Origin: a virus
Lineage: Duplodnaviria > Heunggongvirae > Uroviricota > Caudoviricetes
Virus record (IMG/VR): IMGVR_UViG_638341087_000024
Reading direction: 5' to 3' (one strand)
Length of the DNA stretch: 36,227 nt
The stretch's first letter is position 1, and each line of letters starts with the position of its first letter. The position numbers were made by a program, and so were the translations under genes. The notes beneath the pieces were generated by a model. It searched no databases and was not told the DNA's origin. It saw nothing but the letters and a program-made list of their open reading frames with translations. Shown one piece after another: positions 8,951 to 28,082 of this stretch.

Positions 8951-9910
8951 ATGAAAATTTGTATCGACGACGGCTCCACCAACATCAAGCTGGCATGGAC
9001 TGAGAACGGCGAACGCCGCAACGCCATCAGCCCGAACAGCTTCAAGTCGGAATGGTCTGCGCCGTTCGGTGGCACGCAGCCCGCGAACTACATGCTTGAT
9101 GGCGTGCGCTATGGTTTTGATCCGGTCAGCGATCGCTTTGTCCAGACGACCGACACGCAATACCAGTACAGTGATGTGAATGTCATTGCCATTCATCACG
9201 CACTGGTCAAATCAGGCATCACGCCACAGGAGGTGGATGTGGTTGTCACCCTGCCACTGAGCGAGTATTTCGACACAAACGCACAGCCGGACATGGCCAA
9301 CATCAACCGCAAAAAAGCGAACGTCATGCGCCCGGTGGAGTACCAGAACGGCGAAGCATTCACTATCCGTAACGTACGGGTTATGCCTGAATCCATTCCG
9401 GCTGGCTTTAAGGCACTGGCTGACATGAGTCCGTTTGAATCCCTGCTGATTGTGGATTTGGGCGGAACCACGCTGGATGTGGCAAAGGTTCAGGGGCAAC
9501 TGGCAGGTATCAGCCAGGTGTTTTGCGATCCACACGTAGGCGTTTCTCTGATGGCCGATGCCGTACTGTCGGTGATGGCCACTAACGGTATGCGCACCAG
9601 TCACCACATCGCCAATACCATTATCGAACATCGCCATGATGAAGCCTGGCTGCGCCAGCACATCCACAATGACGCGCATTACGACAGCCTGATGGCGGTT
9701 ATTCGTGAAAAGGAAGAAACACTGAAACAACGAGTGATCCGCGCGCTGGCGGGTTTTTCGGGTTACGGGCGGGTGATGGTTGTCGGTGGAGGGGCGGAGA
9801 TTGTGGCACCCGCTATCCGCGAAGCCTGCGGAGTTAATGCGACTTTCATCGCGGACGGGGTGCCACAGTTTGCTCTGGTCAATGGTTTGTACGCAATGGA
9901 CAAGGAGTAA
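8951..9910 (+). CDS. parM: ParM/StbA actin-like segregation ATPase (type II partition)
   Basis: N-terminus MKICIDDGSTNIKLAW... and internal motifs (YSDVNVIAIHHAL, VMPESIPAGF, LIVDLGGTTLDV, VMVVGGGAE, LVNGLYAM) closely track plasmid R1 ParM. Confidence 0.9.
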   Translation: MKICIDDGSTNIKLAWTENGERRNAISPNSFKSEWSAPFGGTQPANYMLDGVRYGFDPVSDRFVQTTDTQYQYSDVNVIAIHHALVKSGITPQEVDVVVTLPLSEYFDTNAQPDMANINRKKANVMRPVEYQNGEAFTIRNVRVMPESIPAGFKALADMSPFESLLIVDLGGTTLDVAKVQGQLAGISQVFCDPHVGVSLMADAVLSVMATNGMRTSHHIANTIIEHRHDEAWLRQHIHNDAHYDSLMAVIREKEETLKQRVIRALAGFSGYGRVMVVGGGAEIVAPAIREACGVNATFIADGVPQFALVNGLYAMDKE

Positions 9911-10356: not shown

Positions 10357-10875
10357 TTATAAAAAATAATCATCATGAGAGGAAACATGAAAATTATAAT
10401 CTCTCAATTGGGGGATAATCCCTCTACTCCAAAGCAACGTTTTATTTAGTCCAAGTCCATCTAATTTCATCATCCTGTTGCGCAGCGCAATGAATTCATT
10501 CTTGAAGTTATCTGCAGAGATGATCTTTGGGCAAAAACAAGAATACAACTTTCTATTACTTACACCACAAGCATTGGCAAGCTCATCCTCAAAATTGCTT
10601 GTTTGTTGAAATAGGTGGATTGTGTGTTTTTTCGCCTTTAATAGATTGAGATTATTCTTAAATCTATCAAGATTCTCAATCCTATCCGTATCAAAAACCA
10701 CTATGATTTCGCTATTTTCGGTTAATGCTGGCATGTATTTATTTATATTAACATTCCATAAATTAGCAATTACTATTTTCTTAATAGGATAGCCTAGCAA
10801 TGTTTTGAAATCCTGAAACAATGCTTTTTCCGTATCTCCCTCAACAAGAATAATAGCAAATTTCTTAACTGCCAT
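10357..10875 (-). CDS. Small TOPRIM-like putative nuclease (OLD / DUF4276 / DUF4435-like), distal gene of a two-gene cassette
   Basis: 172 aa from ATG 10873-10875 (the track's TTG-initiated ORF extends to 10881). N-terminal strand with conserved acidic residue (FAIILVEGDTEKALF) and a downstream DxD (IIVVFDTDRIE) match the TOPRIM core signature. Markedly AT-rich; starts 2 nt after the ATPase stop. Confidence 0.6.
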   Translation of the reverse strand: MAVKKFAIILVEGDTEKALFQDFKTLLGYPIKKIVIANLWNVNINKYMPALTENSEIIVVFDTDRIENLDRFKNNLNLLKAKKHTIHLFQQTSNFEDELANACGVSNRKLYSCFCPKIISADNFKNEFIALRNRMMKLDGLGLNKTLLWSRGIIPQLRDYNFHVSSHDDYFL

Positions 10876-10877
10876 AA

Positions 10878-12077
10878 TCAATCCTCAAATAGCATCTCTT
10901 CGATTAATGAAACGTCAGGTATTGTTGCAAAACAGTCATTTTTTACTTTATTTAAAAGATTGCGATCATTCTTTTTATGATGTGTGGTAGCTTCAACAAA
11001 AGTGGTTACACCATCTACTTTTTTAGTAAAAGTATATGAATGCGTAGGCAGATCTAAGCTCAAGATATCATAATTATGTGTGGTGTATATAAATTGACCA
11101 TATCTGCAAAGCTTAGATATAATCAGCGTGACCATCATTTTTTCTAATTCAGTATGAGTGAAGGCCATTTTCTCATCCAAAAAGTACACCCCACTGCAAG
11201 GGAAATTGAACTCTCGCTCTTCTATTTTATCTTCAAGCACTCCTGACAGGAGATGGGATATTTTTACTGCCTCATAAGTACCACGAGACAGTCTATCTTT
11301 ATTTGTTATATCACCTTCCATATCAATAATAACTCTATCTCCATTATTGAAGACTACTGAATAACCCTGCAAATCCTCCTTTCCCTCATCATCTTTAAGA
11401 GTGAGTCCTGAGACAGATTTAACAGTATTGTCAAAGGTTTTTAATATGCTATTAAGCACATTCTTCTTAATTCGTGATATTTTATCCGTGTTCTCTTGGT
11501 TTTCAGATAGAATGAAATGCCAACCAAGAACAAAGTCCAAACCCTCTAAATATTGGGAAAATTCTTTTGAGTTAGCGTTTTCGGTTGAAAAAAATCTATT
11601 TTGACCATTTAATTCAAACTTTTGCGCATCCCACACAGCATCCAGTCTTTTGGTCGTCTTTGCGCATGATTCCGAGCTTCTTAAATCAACAGATGCCATT
11701 GCAATTTTTTCTACAACAACAGACTCATCCATAGCCCTAAGCCAGACACCTGCCCTAAACAAACATTTTAAATGACTCTGGAAAAAGTCAACCTCTATAT
11801 ATGCAGGTTTTCTTTTGTCAGTAATTTTTAACGGTTCTGGATTGAAAACACCACTACTGAGAAAACGCAACACAGAAAGCATCACGCGACCAAGAGATGT
11901 TTTACCAGATGCATTAGCACCAGAAACGATGCAAACCTTTTTGAAGTAGAACTTTTCAAATCCATCAATGTACTCACCTTCCAGTGAGCTGTTGATCGGG
12001 GGTCTGGAGAAGCTTAAGTCAAGGATGCTATTTTCAAAGCAAAACAGATTATCGATTCTGATTTTTGTAAAAGCCAT
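10878..12077 (-). CDS. ABC-type ATPase (AAA_15/AAA_21-like, SMC/OLD-family fold), proximal gene of a two-gene cassette
   Basis: Walker A GANASGKTS (nt about 11895-11921), signature-like LSRGTYEAV, Walker B VYFLDE, H-loop IYTTHNYD. Shine-Dalgarno AAGGTGG 7 nt upstream of ATG 12075-12077. AT-rich relative to flanking phage genes. Confidence 0.8.
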   Translation of the reverse strand: MAFTKIRIDNLFCFENSILDLSFSRPPINSSLEGEYIDGFEKFYFKKVCIVSGANASGKTSLGRVMLSVLRFLSSGVFNPEPLKITDKRKPAYIEVDFFQSHLKCLFRAGVWLRAMDESVVVEKIAMASVDLRSSESCAKTTKRLDAVWDAQKFELNGQNRFFSTENANSKEFSQYLEGLDFVLGWHFILSENQENTDKISRIKKNVLNSILKTFDNTVKSVSGLTLKDDEGKEDLQGYSVVFNNGDRVIIDMEGDITNKDRLSRGTYEAVKISHLLSGVLEDKIEEREFNFPCSGVYFLDEKMAFTHTELEKMMVTLIISKLCRYGQFIYTTHNYDILSLDLPTHSYTFTKKVDGVTTFVEATTHHKKNDRNLLNKVKNDCFATIPDVSLIEEMLFED

Positions 12078-21473: not shown

Positions 21474-22051
21474 GCGCAGAACTCATGCGACTGCTGAGCA
21501 ACATCATCCGCACCGGGATCATCTCTGAAGTTGATGAGGAATCCTGGTGCGTGCGCGTTCGCAGCGGCGAACTGGAAACAGGCTGGTTGCGCTGGAACAC
21601 CACGCGCGCGGGAGCCTTCAATGTGTGGCTGCCGCCATCACCAGGCGAACAGGTGGTAATTGCCTGCATTGGCGGCAACCCGGAAACCGCCATGATAATT
21701 GGCAGCCTGTGGAGTGATGCCATTCCGGCCCCCGGCAAAAGCCTGAAAGAAATCGTGGTCAGCGCGCCGGATGGCGCGGTGTTCCGCTACGACGCGGCCG
21801 CAGGCGCACTGAGCGCCAGCGGCATGAAAACAGCCACCCTGCAGGCATCCGTCAGCGTGACACTGGATACGCCCGTCGTGGAATGCACAGACCTTCTGAG
21901 AACGGCGACGCTTGACGTCACAAAAGGGGGAAAGATGAGCGGCAATATCACGCACAGCGGCGGCAATTTCACCTCAAACGGCATCACAGTGCATACGCAT
22001 AAACACGGTGGCGTTAAAGGTGGCAGCGATTCGACAGGAGGCCCGCAGTGA
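21470..22051 (+). CDS. V: Baseplate hub/spike assembly protein (P2 gpV)
   Basis: 193 aa; GTG start with GGAGG 9 nt upstream; glycine-rich C-terminus typical of gpV. Confidence 0.8.
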   Translation: MSAELMRLLSNIIRTGIISEVDEESWCVRVRSGELETGWLRWNTTRAGAFNVWLPPSPGEQVVIACIGGNPETAMIIGSLWSDAIPAPGKSLKEIVVSAPDGAVFRYDAAAGALSASGMKTATLQASVSVTLDTPVVECTDLLRTATLDVTKGGKMSGNITHSGGNFTSNGITVHTHKHGGVKGGSDSTGGPQ

Positions 22052-22398
22052 CAACCCGCTACACAGGAATGAACCCGGACGGAACGGGAAACCTGAACGA
22101 TATGGAGCACCTGAAACAGTCAGTCAGGGACATCCTGACCACCCCGCTGGCCAGCCGGGTTATGCGACGGGAATATGGCAGCCTTGTGCCTGATTTGATT
22201 GACGAACCCATGAATAACACCACGCGTCTGCAATGCATGAGTGCTGCCGTGATTGCGCTGACACGATGGGAACCCCGCATTGCCCTGGACGCCATCGACG
22301 TTGTCTGGAAGGCAGGAGGCCGCGCCGGGGTGACGCTGTCGGGCACTGTCATGCAGACCATGCAGAATGTTGAATTAACCATCACGCTGAGAGAGTAA
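22048..22398 (+). CDS. W: Baseplate wedge protein (P2 gpW, GPW/gp25 family)
   Basis: 116 aa, GTG start overlapping V stop, AGGAGG upstream. Confidence 0.8.
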   Translation: MTTRYTGMNPDGTGNLNDMEHLKQSVRDILTTPLASRVMRREYGSLVPDLIDEPMNNTTRLQCMSAAVIALTRWEPRIALDAIDVVWKAGGRAGVTLSGTVMQTMQNVELTITLRE

Positions 22399-22401
22399 AT
22401 C

Positions 22402-23298
22402 ATGCCTGCTGTTGACCTTTCCCAGTTACCGGAACCCGCCATCATCGCGGAGCCTGATTTTGAGGCAATTCTGGCTGACACAAAGGCCATGATGATTGCG
22501 TCCTATCCCGCCGAACAGCGTGAAGCCGTCTCCGCCGCGCTGGAGCTGGAATCGGAACCCCTGAACGTTATCGCTCAAACCATGTCTTTTCGTGAAATGC
22601 TGTTACGCCAGCGGGTTAACGAGGGCGCACGCGCCTGCATGTTAAGCCACGGTTCAGGGACAAACCTGGACAACCTCGCGGGCAATATGAACACAAAGCG
22701 CCTGGTTATCACTCCGGCAACGGATACCACCGACGCGGTGATGGAGAGCGACACCTCGCTGAGATTGCGGGCGCAACGGGCGTATGACGGCCTGAGTGTT
22801 GCTGGCCCGTCAGGTGCATACGAGTATTTTGCACGCAGCGCCAGCGGTCTGGTGCGTGATGCGCGGGCCATCAGCCCGTCTCCGGCCTGTGTGACGGTTT
22901 CCATCCTGTCCACTGAAGGCGACGGCACAGCAACGGAGGCGTTGCTTAATACCGTTCGCGCCGTTCTGAATGCAGAGGATACCCGCCCGGTGGCCGACCG
23001 CCTGACCGTACAGAGCGCCAGAATCGTGACATGGCGGCTGAATGCAAAACTGTACTTTTACCCCGGCCCGGAATCCGAACCTATTCTGGCCGCGGCTGAA
23101 TCGTCGTTCAGGAAGTGGCTGGCTGAGCAGGGGCTTATCGGTCAGGACGTGGCGTTGTCCGCCATTGCTGCCGCACTGCATGTGCACGGTGTGCAACGCG
23201 TGGAGATAATCGAACCCACACAGAATATGGCCATCAGCGACATACAGGCGGCGCGCTGTGAGTCATTCACCATCAGCGAAGGTGGACGCAATGAGTAA
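22402..23298 (+). CDS. J: Baseplate wedge protein (P2 gpJ)
   Basis: 298 aa; size and synteny with P2 J. Confidence 0.85.
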   Translation: MPAVDLSQLPEPAIIAEPDFEAILADTKAMMIASYPAEQREAVSAALELESEPLNVIAQTMSFREMLLRQRVNEGARACMLSHGSGTNLDNLAGNMNTKRLVITPATDTTDAVMESDTSLRLRAQRAYDGLSVAGPSGAYEYFARSASGLVRDARAISPSPACVTVSILSTEGDGTATEALLNTVRAVLNAEDTRPVADRLTVQSARIVTWRLNAKLYFYPGPESEPILAAAESSFRKWLAEQGLIGQDVALSAIAAALHVHGVQRVEIIEPTQNMAISDIQAARCESFTISEGGRNE

Positions 23299-23899
23299 TT
23301 CGTTGTTACCACCATCAGCCAGCAATTTCATGCGTTGTGCCGAAGCCGTCGGAACACGCATTACAGACATTCCGGTAGACCTCAACACGCTGTGGTCGCC
23401 GGACACCTGCCCGGTGCATCTGCTGCCTTATCTCGCCTGGGCGTTTTCCGTTGACCGCTGGGATCGCAACTGGCCGGAAGAGACAAAGCGACAGGTGATT
23501 CGTGATGCATGGCTGATACACCGACACAAAGGGACCATCAGCGCACTGCGAAGAGCCGTGGAGCCTCTCGGCTACCTGATTGAAGTAAAGGAGTGGTGGC
23601 AACTCAACGAGGAGCCGGGAACATTTCGCATTGTTGTCGGAGTACTTGATCAGGGCATCACCGATGAAATGTATCAGGAACTTGAGCGCCTTATTGCGGA
23701 TGCAAAACCAGTAAGTCGCCATCTGACGGGGCTGGCGATCAGCCTGAGTGTGAACGGAAAGATTTTCGTTGGTACGGGATGCTATCACGGCGATGCCCTG
23801 ACGGTTTATCCCTACACCCCGGAGTCCATTATTGTCGAAGGGGATTATTTCCCTGCCCCAGCCATTCATTTAATTGATAATCTGAGAGTAAACGCATGA
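23291..23899 (+). CDS. I: Baseplate protein (P2 gpI)
   Basis: ATG 23291 overlapping J stop (ATGAGTAA); synteny before tail fibre H. Confidence 0.8.
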   Translation: MSNSLLPPSASNFMRCAEAVGTRITDIPVDLNTLWSPDTCPVHLLPYLAWAFSVDRWDRNWPEETKRQVIRDAWLIHRHKGTISALRRAVEPLGYLIEVKEWWQLNEEPGTFRIVVGVLDQGITDEMYQELERLIADAKPVSRHLTGLAISLSVNGKIFVGTGCYHGDALTVYPYTPESIIVEGDYFPAPAIHLIDNLRVNA

Positions 23900-25536
23900 C
23901 AGTGAAATACTACGCCATTCTGACTAATCAGGGCGCGGCACGACTGGCTAACGCGACGATGCTCGGCAGTAAGCTGAATCTGACGCAAATGGCCGTTGGT
24001 GATGCAAATGGTGTGTTACCAACACCAGACCCTGCACAAACAAAACTGATTAACCAGAAACGCATTGCACCGCTGAATCTTCTGAGTGTTGACCCTAACA
24101 ATCAGAGCCAGATTATTGCGGAGCAAATCATCCCTGAAAACGAGGGAGGATTCTGGATCCGTGAGATTGGTCTTTATGATGATGAAGGTGTACTCATTGC
24201 GGTGGCAAACTGCCCGGAAACGTACAAACCGCAGTTGCAGGAAGGCAGTGGACGCACCCAAACTATCCGCATGATTCTGGTTGTCACGAACACCGAAGCC
24301 ATCACGCTGAAAATTGACCCGTCTGTGGTTCTGGCAACCCGCAAATATGTGGATGATAAAATATCAGAGCACGAACAGTCACGACGTCACCCGGACGCCT
24401 CGCTGACCGTAAAAGGTTTTACTCAGTTAAGCAGTGCAATTAACAGTGAATCAGAAACACTGGCCGCAACACCGAAAGCGGTTAAGGCTGCATATGACCT
24501 GGCTAACGAGAAATATACCGCCCAGAACGCCACCACTACACAAAAAGGGATTGTTCAGCTCAGTAGCGCCACGAACAGCACGTCTGAAACACTGGCAGCG
24601 ACACCAAAAGCTGTTAAGGCGGTAATGGATGAAACGAACAAGAAAGCACCATTAAACAGCCCGGCACTGACCGGAACGCCAACAACACCAACAGCGCCAC
24701 AGGGGACTAATAGTACCCAGATCGCAAGCACGGCTTTCGTTATGGCCGCGATTGCCGCACTTGTAGATTCGTCACCTGATGCACTGAACACGCTGAACGA
24801 ACTGGCTGCGGCGCTGGGCAATGACCCGAATTTTGCGACCACCATGACTAACGCGCTTGCGGGTAAGCAACCGAAGGATGCCACCCTGACGGCGCTGGCG
24901 GAGCTTGCTACATCAGCAGATAAACTCCCATATTTTACAGGGGCAGATCGTGCCGCGTTAACCGCGTTGACAAGTGTTGGACGTGCCATTCTTGGTAAAA
25001 CCAGCACTCAGGGAGTTCTTGATTACCTTGGTTTGGGAGAAGGCTCTGCATTACCGGTTGGGGTGCCTGTTCCGTGGCCTTCAGCCACTCCGCCAACAGG
25101 CTGGCTGAAATGCAATGGTGCGGCTTTTTCTGTTGAAGAATACCCGGAACTGGCAAAGGCTTACCCGACCAATAAATTGCCTGATTTACGCGGTGAATTT
25201 ATTCGTGGCTGGGATGACGGTCGCGGGATTGATACTGGTCGCGCTTTGCTTAATTGGCAGCCACACACAATTTTGGACCATGCACACTATATGGAATTAT
25301 GGACAGGGGACGGACTCGCCGCAGGAAGTGCACGGGAAGGAGTAAACCCAGGAATACTGGCTACATACGGTGACGGGGGAATAGTTAAAACGGACGAACC
25401 CGGTCTTAAGGTGCCTTCCTCACTACGAGCTATTAGCTCTCGTAGTGTTAAACGTTATGGTGAAATTAGTGAAAATGTAGGTACAGAAACTCGTCCTCGT
25501 AACATCGCTTTTAATTATATTGTAAGGGCCGCATGA
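23896..25536 (+). CDS. H: Tail fibre protein (P2 gpH-like) with invertible C-terminal domain
   Basis: Conserved N-terminus MTVKYYAILTNQGAARLANA...; internal repeats SETLAATPKAVKA (x2); the C-terminal part downstream of the crossover site at about 25028 is the currently expressed variable domain. Confidence 0.88.
   Translation: MTVKYYAILTNQGAARLANATMLGSKLNLTQMAVGDANGVLPTPDPAQTKLINQKRIAPLNLLSVDPNNQSQIIAEQIIPENEGGFWIREIGLYDDEGVLIAVANCPETYKPQLQEGSGRTQTIRMILVVTNTEAITLKIDPSVVLATRKYVDDKISEHEQSRRHPDASLTVKGFTQLSSAINSESETLAATPKAVKAAYDLANEKYTAQNATTTQKGIVQLSSATNSTSETLAATPKAVKAVMDETNKKAPLNSPALTGTPTTPTAPQGTNSTQIASTAFVMAAIAALVDSSPDALNTLNELAAALGNDPNFATTMTNALAGKQPKDATLTALAELATSADKLPYFTGADRAALTALTSVGRAILGKTSTQGVLDYLGLGEGSALPVGVPVPWPSATPPTGWLKCNGAAFSVEEYPELAKAYPTNKLPDLRGEFIRGWDDGRGIDTGRALLNWQPHTILDHAHYMELWTGDGLAAGSAREGVNPGILATYGDGGIVKTDEPGLKVPSSLRAISSRSVKRYGEISENVGTETRPRNIAFNYIVRAA
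25016..25041. promoter_or_regulatory. Invertase crossover site (hix/gix-like), left
   Basis: TTCTTGATTACC-TT-GGTTTGGGAGAA resembles hixL as recalled (TTCTTGAAAACCAAGGTTTTTGATAA) and is an inverted copy of the right site (15-bp identity TTGGTTTGGGAGAAG); falls on the shared GLGE codons of the two alternative fibre ends. Confidence 0.65.
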
Positions 25537-26138
25537 TGAATAAAGCTGTATTAAATAGCGAACTCATTGCCATAAAAGCGGGAGATATTACCGTTTATAA
25601 TTATGATGGTGAAACGCGGGAATATATTTCTACATCAACTGAATATCTCGCTGTCGGCGTCGGTATCCCGGCATGTTCTTGTTTAGATGCACCAGTTACA
25701 CATAAAGCTGGTTATGCAATCTGCCGTTCTGCAGATTTTAACTCATGGGAATATGTGCCAGACCATCGCGGTGAAATCATCTATAGCACCGAAACAGGAG
25801 AATCGAAAGAAATCACAGCTCCGGGTGATTATCCTGAAAATACAACCACTATCGCCCCGTTAACGCCATACGATGAATGGGATGGTGAGAAATGGGTGAC
25901 AGATACTGAGGCACAGCATAGCGCCGCAGTAGGCGCGGCAGAAGCACAGCGTCAGTCACTGATTGATACTGCAATGGCTTCCATTAGTCTGATTCAACTG
26001 AAATTGCAGGCCGGGCGGAAGCTGATGCAGACAGAAAACACCCGACTTAACGCTGTGCTGGATTACATTGACGCGGTGACGGCAACAGATACCAGCACCG
26101 CGCCGGACGTCATCTGGCCTGAACTGCCGGAGGCGTAG
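25533..26138 (+). CDS. G: Tail fibre assembly protein (P2 gpG / Tfa), expressed orientation
   Basis: 201 aa; follows H with overlapping stop/start; C-terminal motif APDVIWPELPEA typical of Tfa chaperones. Confidence 0.8.
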   Translation: MMNKAVLNSELIAIKAGDITVYNYDGETREYISTSTEYLAVGVGIPACSCLDAPVTHKAGYAICRSADFNSWEYVPDHRGEIIYSTETGESKEITAPGDYPENTTTIAPLTPYDEWDGEKWVTDTEAQHSAAVGAAEAQRQSLIDTAMASISLIQLKLQAGRKLMQTENTRLNAVLDYIDAVTATDTSTAPDVIWPELPEA

Positions 26139-26529
26139 GCCATTCAATATCTGGCGCACCGGAAGTATCGACCAGTTCCAGTGCGTCCAGATAATCCAGC
26201 CACAAATTATATTGCGCCAGTTCCTCACCTTTCAGGCGACCAATCGCCGCTTTACCTGGCCATTGTCTGCTGTTCATGTGCTCGTTGGCTTCATTAATAA
26301 GTTTTCTTTTTTTCAAATCCGCCAATGCAATAAGGTTTTCTTTTGATAAAGGTGGTTGCTCTGTCAAAACCGGATATCCCTCCTGATTGCTGACTATTTT
26401 CATGCCATTATCCTGACCATCCAGTAGTAACAGCCATTCATCCGTGGTTATCTCAACAGCATCTGAAGGTGCTTTATTTAAATCGGTAAAAAAACCATTT
26501 TCTTTTTGTGAATAGAAGTATCTATCCAT
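26110..26529 (-). CDS. Alternative tail fibre assembly protein (Tfa'), silent orientation
   Basis: 139 aa, convergent with G; C-terminal APDIEWPTPPA motif; inside the invertible segment. Confidence 0.75.
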   Translation of the reverse strand: MDRYFYSQKENGFFTDLNKAPSDAVEITTDEWLLLLDGQDNGMKIVSNQEGYPVLTEQPPLSKENLIALADLKKRKLINEANEHMNSRQWPGKAAIGRLKGEELAQYNLWLDYLDALELVDTSGAPDIEWPTPPAVQAR

Positions 26530-26532
26530 TTA

Positions 26533-26934
26533 TTAATCTCCAAAAGCAATCCAGTAAGCAAAAGGATTTATTCCTTGCTCAGTCACAGATGACATCAGGG
26601 AAAATTGCGATGGTGAAACAGGTAACGCTGCAAAACTAACCATTGTTGACACACCTGACCGTGCATTATCGTACGATGCAACAACACAATAATTGGTATT
26701 GCTGAAAGATATCGGCAGGGTGATATTTACAGGTGAGCCTAATGGCCCTGATGCTGATATTCCCATTTGAATGATGGTTCCATCAGGCAATTTTCTCCAG
26801 CGATTAGAACTCGGATTTCTTTTCCAGGCTGACATATCCGGTATCTGATTTTCTCCTGTGCCCACATCCCTTTTCGCCGCTTCTCCCAAACCAACGTTTA
26901 AGAAAATGCAGAGATTACGGCTAACTGGCATCAT
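26533..26934 (-). CDS. Alternative tail fibre C-terminal cassette (Sv'-like), promoterless in the current orientation
   Basis: Minus-strand ORF whose translation shares GLGE at the crossover site with H; inversion would fuse about 26533..26893 to the constant part of H. Confidence 0.7.
   Translation of the reverse strand: MMPVSRNLCIFLNVGLGEAAKRDVGTGENQIPDMSAWKRNPSSNRWRKLPDGTIIQMGISASGPLGSPVNITLPISFSNTNYCVVASYDNARSGVSTMVSFAALPVSPSQFSLMSSVTEQGINPFAYWIAFGD
26881..26906. promoter_or_regulatory. Invertase crossover site (hix/gix-like), right
   Basis: Reverse complement TTTTCTTAAACG-TT-GGTTTGGGAGAA matches the left site; lies about 55 bp upstream of the invertase gene. Confidence 0.65.
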
Positions 26935-26961
26935 CCCCGGTTTTTATTCAGGGGATCCATC

Positions 26962-27561
26962 ATGCTTATTGGCTATGTCCGCGTATCAACAAATGACCAG
27001 AATACAGAATTGCAGCGTAACGCGCTGGAGTGCGCAGGATGTGAACTAATTTTTGAAGATAAAATCAGCGGAACGAAATCAGCCAGACCGGGATTGAAAA
27101 AACTGATCAGAACGCTATCAGAAGGAGATACGCTGGTTGTCTGGAAGCTGGACAGACTGGGCAGAAGTATGAAACACCTGATCACGCTTATTGAGGAATT
27201 GCGGGAAAAAGGTGTTAATTTCCGTAGTCTGACGGACAGCATTGACACATCAACACCCATGGGGCGTTTCTTTTTTCACGTCATGGGGGCTTTAGCCGAA
27301 ATGGAACGTGAATTAATTGTAGAGCGTACCCTGGCCGGGCTGGCAGCAGCACGCGCACAAGGACGCATTGGCGGACGTCGCCCGAAGTTGACAAAAGAAC
27401 AACACGAGCAAATAGCGAGGCTGATTAAAAACGGTCATGACAGGAAACAACTGGCGATCATTTACGACATCGGCATATCGACGATTTATCGTTATCACCC
27501 TGTAGGCGATATACAGGCTGAAGAAACAACCAGGCAGACTCAGGAAAATGAAAACCGCTAA
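26962..27561 (+). CDS. Serine DNA invertase (Hin/Gin/Cin/Pin family)
   Basis: MLIGYVRVSTNDQNTELQ..., LVVWKLDRLGRS, and C-terminal HTH with GGRRPKLT are hallmark resolvase/invertase motifs. Confidence 0.95.
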   Translation: MLIGYVRVSTNDQNTELQRNALECAGCELIFEDKISGTKSARPGLKKLIRTLSEGDTLVVWKLDRLGRSMKHLITLIEELREKGVNFRSLTDSIDTSTPMGRFFFHVMGALAEMERELIVERTLAGLAAARAQGRIGGRRPKLTKEQHEQIARLIKNGHDRKQLAIIYDIGISTIYRYHPVGDIQAEETTRQTQENENR

Positions 27562-27587
27562 TCTGACCATTAGCGGTTTTGCGTTAA

Positions 27588-28082
27588 TCAAAACAGCCCT
27601 TTAACGGAGCTGGCCGCGCTGTTAAGGGATGATGTGACCTTATCTTTGAAGCCGGACAGCATATCACTGAACGATGAGGATTGCAGGCGCTCCCGCAAAT
27701 CCTCATCACAGCGTTCAAGGGTCAGTGAAAATTCTATCTTTTTCGCCTTACCGTAGCGATCAAACTCGGAACGGGTCGTATTCGTTCCAGTCAGGACATA
27801 CATGCCGTAAATCTGCCCGACGCCATCAATCAAAGGCCAGGGTCGTCCTGTATAAGCCTGCGTGGTCAGCAGCGACAGCGACACTTCGCCACCTGTAATT
27901 TCAGGATAAAGCACACCAGAAAGAACGATGCGATCATCACCTGCACCGATATACTGCCAGCTTGCTGAACGGTTAATGCGTTCATTTTTCACATGCCGCC
28001 AGCTTTTGTTTTGCTGTAACTGCTGATGCGGCAGCGTGCGCAGCTCAAAAACAAACATGCCGTAGATCATCATCATGGCCAT
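27588..28082 (-). CDS. U: Tail protein U (P2 gpU)
   Basis: 164 aa; MAMMMIYGMFVFELRTLPHQ... and WPLIDG..., GMYVL... parallel P2 U. Confidence 0.8.
   Translation of the reverse strand: MAMMMIYGMFVFELRTLPHQQLQQNKSWRHVKNERINRSASWQYIGAGDDRIVLSGVLYPEITGGEVSLSLLTTQAYTGRPWPLIDGVGQIYGMYVLTGTNTTRSEFDRYGKAKKIEFSLTLERCDEDLRERLQSSSFSDMLSGFKDKVTSSLNSAASSVKGLF

Follow-up and report, generated by a model that had tools for sequence, protein, structure and literature searches.

Invertible tail-fibre cassettes follow one logic in the best described systems. Phage Mu, with its G segment and the invertase Gin, and phage P1, with its C segment and Cin, combine a constant fibre part (Sc) with alternative cassettes (Sv/U and Sv'/U') bounded by 26-bp sites, and in both phages the invertase gene lies immediately outside one site and carries the enhancer within it. 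The e14 element has the order stf tip, tfa, inverted tfa', inverted stf' tip and pin, and inversion of its P segment, driven by PinE or PinQ at the repeats TTGGTTTGGGAGAAGG and CCTTCTCCCAAACCAA, was recently followed by quantitative polymerase chain reaction (PCR) and sequencing (Kirigo et al., 2025; PMC12529663). Inversion of tail-fibre cassettes had previously been reported for e14 and for two P2-like prophages of the enteropathogenic Escherichia coli (EPEC) strain E2348/69, where both sequencing and PCR detected the inversions within clonal cultures (Goldberg et al., 2014; PMC4272514). Here, we describe a system of this kind at the tail-fibre gene H of the IMG/VR virus record IMGVR_UViG_638341087_000024, a stretch of 36,227 nucleotides that we refer to as a whole as the window. 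Our analysis makes it very likely that this locus, which belongs to a P2-related E. coli prophage of the P88-like kind, is an active two-state switch of the Pin type (Din family) that exchanges the fibre tip along with its chaperone. Since the e14 and EPEC inversions are published, systems of this kind were already established, P2-related prophages included, and the switch in the window is real, probably active and an ordinary member of the Hin/Gin/Cin/Pin family.

The switch occupies the end of gene H and the genes that follow it. H (23896-25536, plus strand) encodes a protein of 546 amino acids with the Pfam domains Phage_tail_fib, Phage_fiber_2 and Collar. Its constant N-terminal part (23896-25027, amino acids 1-377 up to the crossover) contains the first two of these domains, and the variable C-terminus that is presently fused to it (25028-25536) is a StfE-like tail-collar tip, with Collar at amino acids 389-436. 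The assembly chaperone for this expressed tip, the TfaE-like Tfa, is encoded immediately downstream on the same strand (25533-26138, start at 25536 in the RefSeq annotation) and matches Caudo_TAP. It overlaps by 29 bp with the convergent gene of a TfaP-like alternative chaperone, Tfa' (26110-26529, minus strand), which also matches Caudo_TAP. An alternative fibre C-terminus follows on the minus strand (open reading frame (ORF) at 26533-26934, of which 26533-26894 belongs to the invertible segment); it carries a Gp53-like_C domain, unrelated to Collar, and in the orientation of the window it is not joined to H, its reading frame extending instead to an ATG at 26934 in fixed DNA. The series ends with an intact gene for a serine DNA invertase of 199 amino acids (26962-27561, plus strand) with the Pfam domains Resolvase and HTH_7. 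An earlier note, made from the letters of this DNA, had described precisely this succession of H and Tfa, inverted Tfa' and alternative fibre end, and invertase; the ORF map and Pfam agree with it, and every feature that it listed is found in the sequence where it had been placed.

Two 26-bp sites that resemble the pix sites of e14 delimit the variable part. Site 1 (25016-25041) reads TTCTTGATTACC TT GGTTTGGGAGAA, with its central dinucleotide at 25028-25029, and site 2 (26881-26906) reads TTCTCCCAAACC AA CGTTTAAGAAAA, with its central dinucleotide at 26893-26894. They lie in inverted orientation, their central dinucleotides are identical (AA/TT), and they share an exact 15-nt inverted core, TTGGTTTGGGAGAAG, at 25028-25042 and 26880-26894; a repeat finder reports the core region as an 18-nt arm with 94% complementarity. 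The core encodes GLGE in both fibre reading frames. The coordinates and frames thus bear out the proposal of two inverted hix-like sites placed over shared GLGE codons, and both sites align with the annotated cix, gix and pix sites. A bare 15-nt inverted repeat is unremarkable in itself: a stretch of 36 kb should contain 0.61 of them by chance, and one of 7 kb 0.023. However, when we scored the window with a half-site matrix built only from the cixL and cixR sites of P1 and the boundaries of the Mu G segment, as annotated in their GenBank records, sites 1 and 2 were the sole two matches in 36 kb (scores of 21.1 and 23.6, respectively). The next-best 26-mer scored 12.0, and the maximum over 300 dinucleotide-preserving shuffles was 19.9, so that none of the 300 reached 21.1. 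Neither a 14-mer search allowing up to three mismatches nor the matrix scan found a third crossover site in the window, which therefore holds a simple two-state switch. A shufflon or Min-like multi-inversion system, as found in one P2-like prophage of EPEC, was rejected for the same reason. The distance from the centre of site 2 to the ATG of the invertase gene is 69 bp, and it amounts to 68-69 bp in the window, e14, the O55:H7 strain CB9615, P88 and Mu alike.

Inverting the 1867-bp segment 25028-26894 in silico leaves H in frame and yields an alternative protein, H', of 497 amino acids that has amino acids 1-382 in common with H. We searched 5,426 complete E. coli genomes with the junction predicted for this inverted state (constant part of H plus gp53-like tip, 801 nt) and found it with 100% identity over the 801 nt in strains 504838 (NZ_CP025856) and L3_E36_ETEC (NZ_LR882997), while the native junction is present with at least 98.5% identity in CE0021a, WS3294A, APEC37 and 1332KP. 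The in silico inversion restores collinearity with the strains of opposite orientation: the inverted window is collinear with the prophage of 504838 (99.64% identity over 8,802 nt) and with that of L3_E36_ETEC (98.75%). Aligned in its native form, the window matches 504838 in three pieces, of which 25028-26897 lies on the opposite strand, and the breaks fall at 25028-25042 and 26880-26897. The ends of these pieces overlap by 15 and 18 nt, which places the breakpoints inside the repeats. The flipped segment differs from 504838 by only two substitutions and one gap, and the predicted H' is identical, with 0 mismatches, to the annotated protein WP_097474492.1 of that strain. Moreover, 504838 and CE0021a, which are of opposite orientation, have identical RefSeq accessions for the invertase, both Tfa proteins, gpI, gpW and gpU. 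Both orientations hence exist in nature, with breakpoints inside the predicted sites. They are observed across near-identical prophages in complete genomes of different isolates and not in one culture, which answers, at the level of isolates, the suggestion to look for the two states.

These relatives also show some differences from the window. The unexpressed StfE-like cassette of 504838 (locus L002:5787-6289) has a 1-nt deletion in a G5/C5 run, corresponding to window positions ~25375-25379. In L3_E36_ETEC, whose segment is in the inverted orientation, a 9-bp tandem duplication in the invertase gene (locus L003:6363-6971) inserts the residues RLG behind D64, within the catalytic domain (KLDRLGRLGRSM). 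The window and CE0021a are 100% identical over 24700-27600, with 13 substitutions in the ~3.3 kb upstream (21700-25042 compared), so that the window probably derives from another strain closely related to CE0021a.

The enzyme presumed to act on these sites is well conserved. The invertase matches the Pfam families PF00239 (E = 8.9e-52) and PF02796 (E = 1.4e-12), no NCBIfam equivalog model reached its cutoff, and its closest solved relative is the Gin structure 4m6f (E = 2.5e-91). By alignment, it shares 82% of its residues with PinE, 72% with Gin and 75% with Cin, and 86% with the invertase of P88; compared with PinE, its C-terminal tail is 15 amino acids longer. The catalytic Ser9 is present in all four proteins when the enzyme is aligned with PinE, Gin and Cin. 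In Hin, residues Q151, R154 and L155, together with basic residues at positions 47, 48 and 51, were described as unique to the Fis/enhancer-dependent invertases (McLean et al., 2013; PMC3798978). The window invertase has their equivalents in Q150, R153, L154, K46, K47 and R50, the offset of -1 relative to Hin being inferred from the N-terminus. The view that this is a Hin/Gin-family invertase whose ORF is free of inactivating lesions holds by all these measures, namely Pfam, the alignment with Gin, Cin and PinE, and the catalytic and marker residues. The window thus contains an invertible segment of the Din family (Hin/Gin/Cin/Pin) by which both the C-terminus of H and the accompanying chaperone are exchanged.

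The enhancer was sought in the 5' part of the invertase gene. In the P1 record, the cin enhancer is annotated at gene nucleotides 19-90, and the homologous stretch of the window, 26980-27051 on the plus strand (likewise nucleotides 19-90 of the invertase gene), is identical to it at 58 of 72 nt. This stretch, placed by homology, is probably a Fis-dependent recombinational enhancer. Of the codons that specify the same amino acid in all five invertases compared, 6 of 19 within this stretch (codons 7-30) are identical in DNA as well, versus 8 of 79 elsewhere (Fisher p = 0.027, a small test), an excess at synonymous sites that lends modest support to a constraint acting on the DNA itself. Individual Fis sites could not be assigned by pattern: the only pairs of G-N13-C motifs found 48 bp apart fall partly outside the annotated cin enhancer and are absent from pinE. 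We therefore treated this pattern as uninformative and relied on homology and synonymous-site conservation instead. The search proposed for a Fis-dependent enhancer in this part of the gene has accordingly returned a cin-homologous stretch and no individually assignable Fis sites.

Taken together with the known behaviour of the family, these features suggest the following course of events. Invertase dimers would bind both inverted 26-bp sites (25016-25041 and 26881-26906) and synapse on the Fis-bound enhancer that homology places at the start of the invertase gene (first ~90 nt). The invertase would then cut at the identical central AA/TT and rotate the strands, leaving the 1867-bp segment 25028-26894 inverted, while the constant 5' part of H (codons 1-377) and the transcription that enters it from upstream at late times would stay in place. 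In the orientation of the window, H ends in the StfE-like tail-collar tip and is followed by the TfaE-like chaperone; after inversion, it ends in the gp53-like tip (497 amino acids in all) and is followed by the TfaP-like chaperone. Populations of lysogens would in this way release two kinds of virions, presumably differing in receptor specificity. We infer flipping by the segment's own invertase, with dependence on Fis and the enhancer, and with it a rate of switching and an effect on host range. The functional host-range switch of about 1.9 kb that the earlier note had proposed is accordingly well founded as a 1867-bp Din-family switch with both orientations in existence, and its consequence for host range stays a prediction.

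Several points weigh against an active switch of host range. The two orientations were seen in different strains, so that the flips could be old, or could have been made in trans by other Pin-family invertases. A scan for consensus sequences found no sigma-70-like promoter between site 2 and the ATG of the invertase gene, although the missing match may mean only that the promoter is weak. The nucleotide identity of the enhancer stretch cannot be separated fully from protein-coding conservation, and few codons enter the synonymous-site test (p = 0.027). The 1-nt deletion of 504838, marked as a frameshift in RefSeq, may be real decay or else a homopolymer sequencing error. Finally, the difference in receptor between the two tips is drawn from their unrelated domains and from the known biology of the family. 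One could accordingly imagine a frozen relic, whose sites and invertase look intact but which no longer flips, the differences among strains being the product of rare old events or of recombination between prophages. Orientations that differ between strains and have not been seen within one culture, the lack of a promoter-like site upstream of the invertase, and the occurrence of one relative with a 9-bp duplication in its invertase gene and another with a frameshifted unexpressed cassette would all be expected if this were so. However, Gin and Hin and their relatives work at very low expression, and the catalytic and Fis-contact residues of the window invertase are all intact. Furthermore, prophages of opposite orientation are 99.6% identical over 8.8 kb, with only two substitutions and one gap in the segment, and the core is the same as that of the experimentally active e14 sites (PMC12529663). 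We consider a frozen relic improbable for these reasons and favour a switch that still operates.

If the switch is active, the identity of the enzyme that mainly operates it is a separate matter. The flipping could be dominated by other Pin-family invertases acting in trans (PinE, PinQ, PinR or those of other prophages), the adjacent gene being dispensable. This is compatible with the model of an active two-state switch, and we regard such dominance as possible, though clearly the less probable arrangement. Invertases of the Din family cross-complement, as Fin and Hin do, and homologous places are numerous (median of 2 per E. coli genome, maximum of 12). In addition, the e14 P segment has the same core repeats as the window, and PinQ, from the Qin prophage, inverts that segment more efficiently than the element's own PinE does (PMC12529663). 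On the other hand, the adjacent invertase is intact, its spacing of 68-69 bp to site 2 has been kept as in Mu, P88 and e14, its accession is identical between strains of opposite orientation, and action in trans would supplement action in cis and not replace it. Recombination of an entirely different type, dependent on RecA and acting on the short inverted repeats without site specificity, could in principle use the 18-nt inverted repeat with one mismatch that flanks the segment, but we attach hardly any probability to it. Homologies of 15-18 bp are too short for efficient recombination by the E. coli RecA system, and the repeats form part of 26-bp sites whose two half-sites, including the outer halves that are not repeated, both match gix, cix and pix. 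A cognate invertase is encoded 69 bp away, and other inverted repeats of similar length in the window have no associated rearrangements. Site-specific inversion by a Pin-family invertase, probably the adjacent one, is thus the explanation that we retain.

The closest relatives of the cassette itself are found in the P segment of e14 and its kin. In a megablast search of the E. coli genomes, many matches begin at query position 325/326, which is site 1, and continue into genes annotated as tfaE, pinE and the like; such homologous cassettes are common, 3510 of the 5426 genomes matching some part of the query. The pinE region of the O55:H7 strain CB9615 aligns with window positions 25017-27402 in one piece at 92.7% DNA identity, although it lies on an unrelated prophage with a different baseplate set. 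In e14, the site beside pinE (K-12) differs by 1 nt from site 2 of the window and has the same central AA and an identical 15-nt core, the partner site inside stfP shares its inner half with the window sites, and the repeats reported by Kirigo et al. contain the same core (PMC12529663). The K-12 segment is in the opposite orientation relative to pin. At the protein level, identities amount to 90.5% between Tfa and TfaE, 53% between Tfa' and TfaP and 58% between the expressed tip of H and the translation of stfE; no match to the gp53-like tip of the window was detectable in K-12 e14. Whereas the window is a complete P88-like myovirus prophage with a constant H region of 382 amino acids, the fibre gene of e14 is truncated and the element itself defective, and both the constant fibre part and the whole backbone are unrelated between the window and e14-type prophages.

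The relation to Mu and P1 is of another kind. The cassette proteins have no detectable similarity to the S and U proteins of either phage, and in tblastn searches of the Mu G region neither the tips nor the Tfa proteins gave a match at E < 1e-5, only a fibre repeat of the constant part being matched. The central dinucleotide is AA in the window, in pix and in cix, but GA in Mu and P88, and the segment is shorter (1.87 kb, versus ~3.06 kb in Mu and 4.26 kb in P1 according to the annotated boundaries). We rejected a Mu-type cassette because no cassette protein resembles those of Mu or P1 and the sites combine a central AA with pix-type arms. By these comparisons, the cassette and its sites belong to the Pin/P-segment branch and function like a Mu G segment. 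The description of the locus as Mu G-segment-like therefore applies to its architecture and mechanism, whereas its cassette and sites are of the e14 Pin type.

The backbone that carries the cassette is P88-like. Positions 2.8-23.7 kb of the window are 96% identical to P88 and its relatives (Xuanwuvirus, Peduoviridae), and the gene content is P2-like, with integrase, gpA, portal, terminase, capsid, V-W-J-I-H-G, FI, FII, T, U and D. By Pfam, gpI and gpJ are encoded upstream of the fibre region and gpU downstream on the minus strand; a terminator-like hairpin with a perfect 12-bp stem (27551-27580) lies between the convergent invertase and gpU genes. The genes U, T, E, FII and FI are on the minus strand and D on the plus strand, an arrangement that is found in P88 and differs from that of P2. 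In classical P2, the baseplate and fibre genes V, W, J, I, H and G and the tail genes FI, FII, E, T, U and D are homologous (Pfam), but FI to D are on the strand of H, fun(Z) lies between G and FI, and both an invertase and a second cassette are lacking. Because the FI-FII-E-T-U block of the window is on the opposite strand, the cassette sits between G and U and not in the Z/fun slot between G and FI. P88 has H, tfa, tfa', H' and an invertase at the same place, followed by gpU on the opposite strand, and its two 26-bp sites are at equivalent positions. These sites are gix-like (TTCCTGTAAACC GA GGTTTT.GATAA), and the cassettes of P88 are of the Mu G type, with chaperones of 175 and 177 amino acids. 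In serine invertases, differing central dinucleotides, such as AA in the window and GA in P88, should block productive recombination between the two types of site.

The edges of the exchanged region can be located by alignment. DNA homology to P88 ends at 23734, is patchy over the constant part of H and resumes at 26951, 11 nt before the ATG of the invertase gene, from where it continues at 92% identity through the invertase, U and T. Between the constant part of H and the N-terminal part of P88 gp39, identity is 63.6%, in an alignment that stops at P88's own crossover site. PhiR44_2, a close P88-like relative that has neither cassette nor invertase, runs from G directly to U, yet its sequence (locus L009:26767 onward) aligns with window positions 27503-27561, the last ~58 nt of the invertase gene, in a manner that resembles a deletion scar; the simplest reading is that PhiR44_2 would have lost its cassette by deletion. 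As P88 has the invertase in the same place, the homology at 92% is contiguous and PhiR44_2 retains a remnant, the invertase is part of the backbone of this lineage, and the portion exchanged relative to P88, as judged from these alignments, is the H gene with the invertible cassette (23735-26950). A P2 phage with a moron at the Z/fun position was thus rejected, both gene order and best matches pointing to P88. It remains true, as had been noted earlier, that classical P2 lacks such a switch and has fun(Z) instead; the modular acquisition at a Z/fun-equivalent position that was deduced from it does not hold, given the P88 backbone, the cassette between G and U and the backbone origin of the invertase.

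The tip that is not joined to H may itself be translated. The fixed DNA between site 2 and the invertase (26895-26934, minus strand) contains an in-frame stub with an ATG at 26934 (MMPVSRNLCIFLNV...), and this stub always joins whichever tip is not on H. In the present orientation it gives an ORF of 133 amino acids, annotated in RefSeq as a separate gp53-like protein. The start of the stub ORF ('MMP...') is conserved in e14 and CB9615, and it is broken by a stop codon in P88. We found no clear Shine-Dalgarno sequence ahead of it, nor any promoter-like site in a consensus scan; the FI-U tail operon is encoded on the same strand, upstream of the stub and beyond the hairpin at 27551-27580, and read-through from this operon might aid expression of the stub. 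For the corresponding chimera of stub and tip in e14, StfE2, a block of phage T2 adsorption after inversion by PinQ or PinE has been reported (PMC12529663). By analogy, the cassette that is not on H would not be silent, and the switch would double as a reversible toggle of superinfection defence for the lysogen, a proposal that we consider very unlikely to apply here.

A few other genes of the prophage deserve mention. A candidate anti-phage gene pair lies beside the portal gene on the minus strand (10357-12077), in a position that resembles known defence hotspots of P2-like phages. It encodes a protein of 399 amino acids with an AAA_15 ATPase domain and a PADLOC match to AbiLi (E = 9.6e-28) and, downstream, a protein of 174 amino acids with weak AbiLii and Toprim-like matches (E ~6e-5). 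A ParM-like, actin-type plasmid segregation protein, also annotated in P88, is encoded downstream of gene A (8951-9910, plus strand). At the end of the prophage, an ORF of 274 amino acids (34635-35459, minus strand) had no match in Pfam, PADLOC or NCBIfam.

The locus matters little beyond annotation, where it offers a clean natural case of an invertible fibre cassette of the Pin type within an intact P88-like prophage, and public genomes contain both of its states. Gene callers list the unexpressed tip as a separate 'gp53-like domain-containing protein', and the assemblies of strains that contain this prophage may carry either orientation. Predictions of its host range should hence take in two fibre proteins, of 546 and 497 amino acids. 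In addition, homology to the e14-type P region begins exactly at the crossover site (25017) and P88 homology is back 11 nt before the invertase. These mosaic edges agree with a long-held idea, namely that phages exchange receptor-binding modules with one another at crossover sites and conserved invertase genes, which serve as joints.

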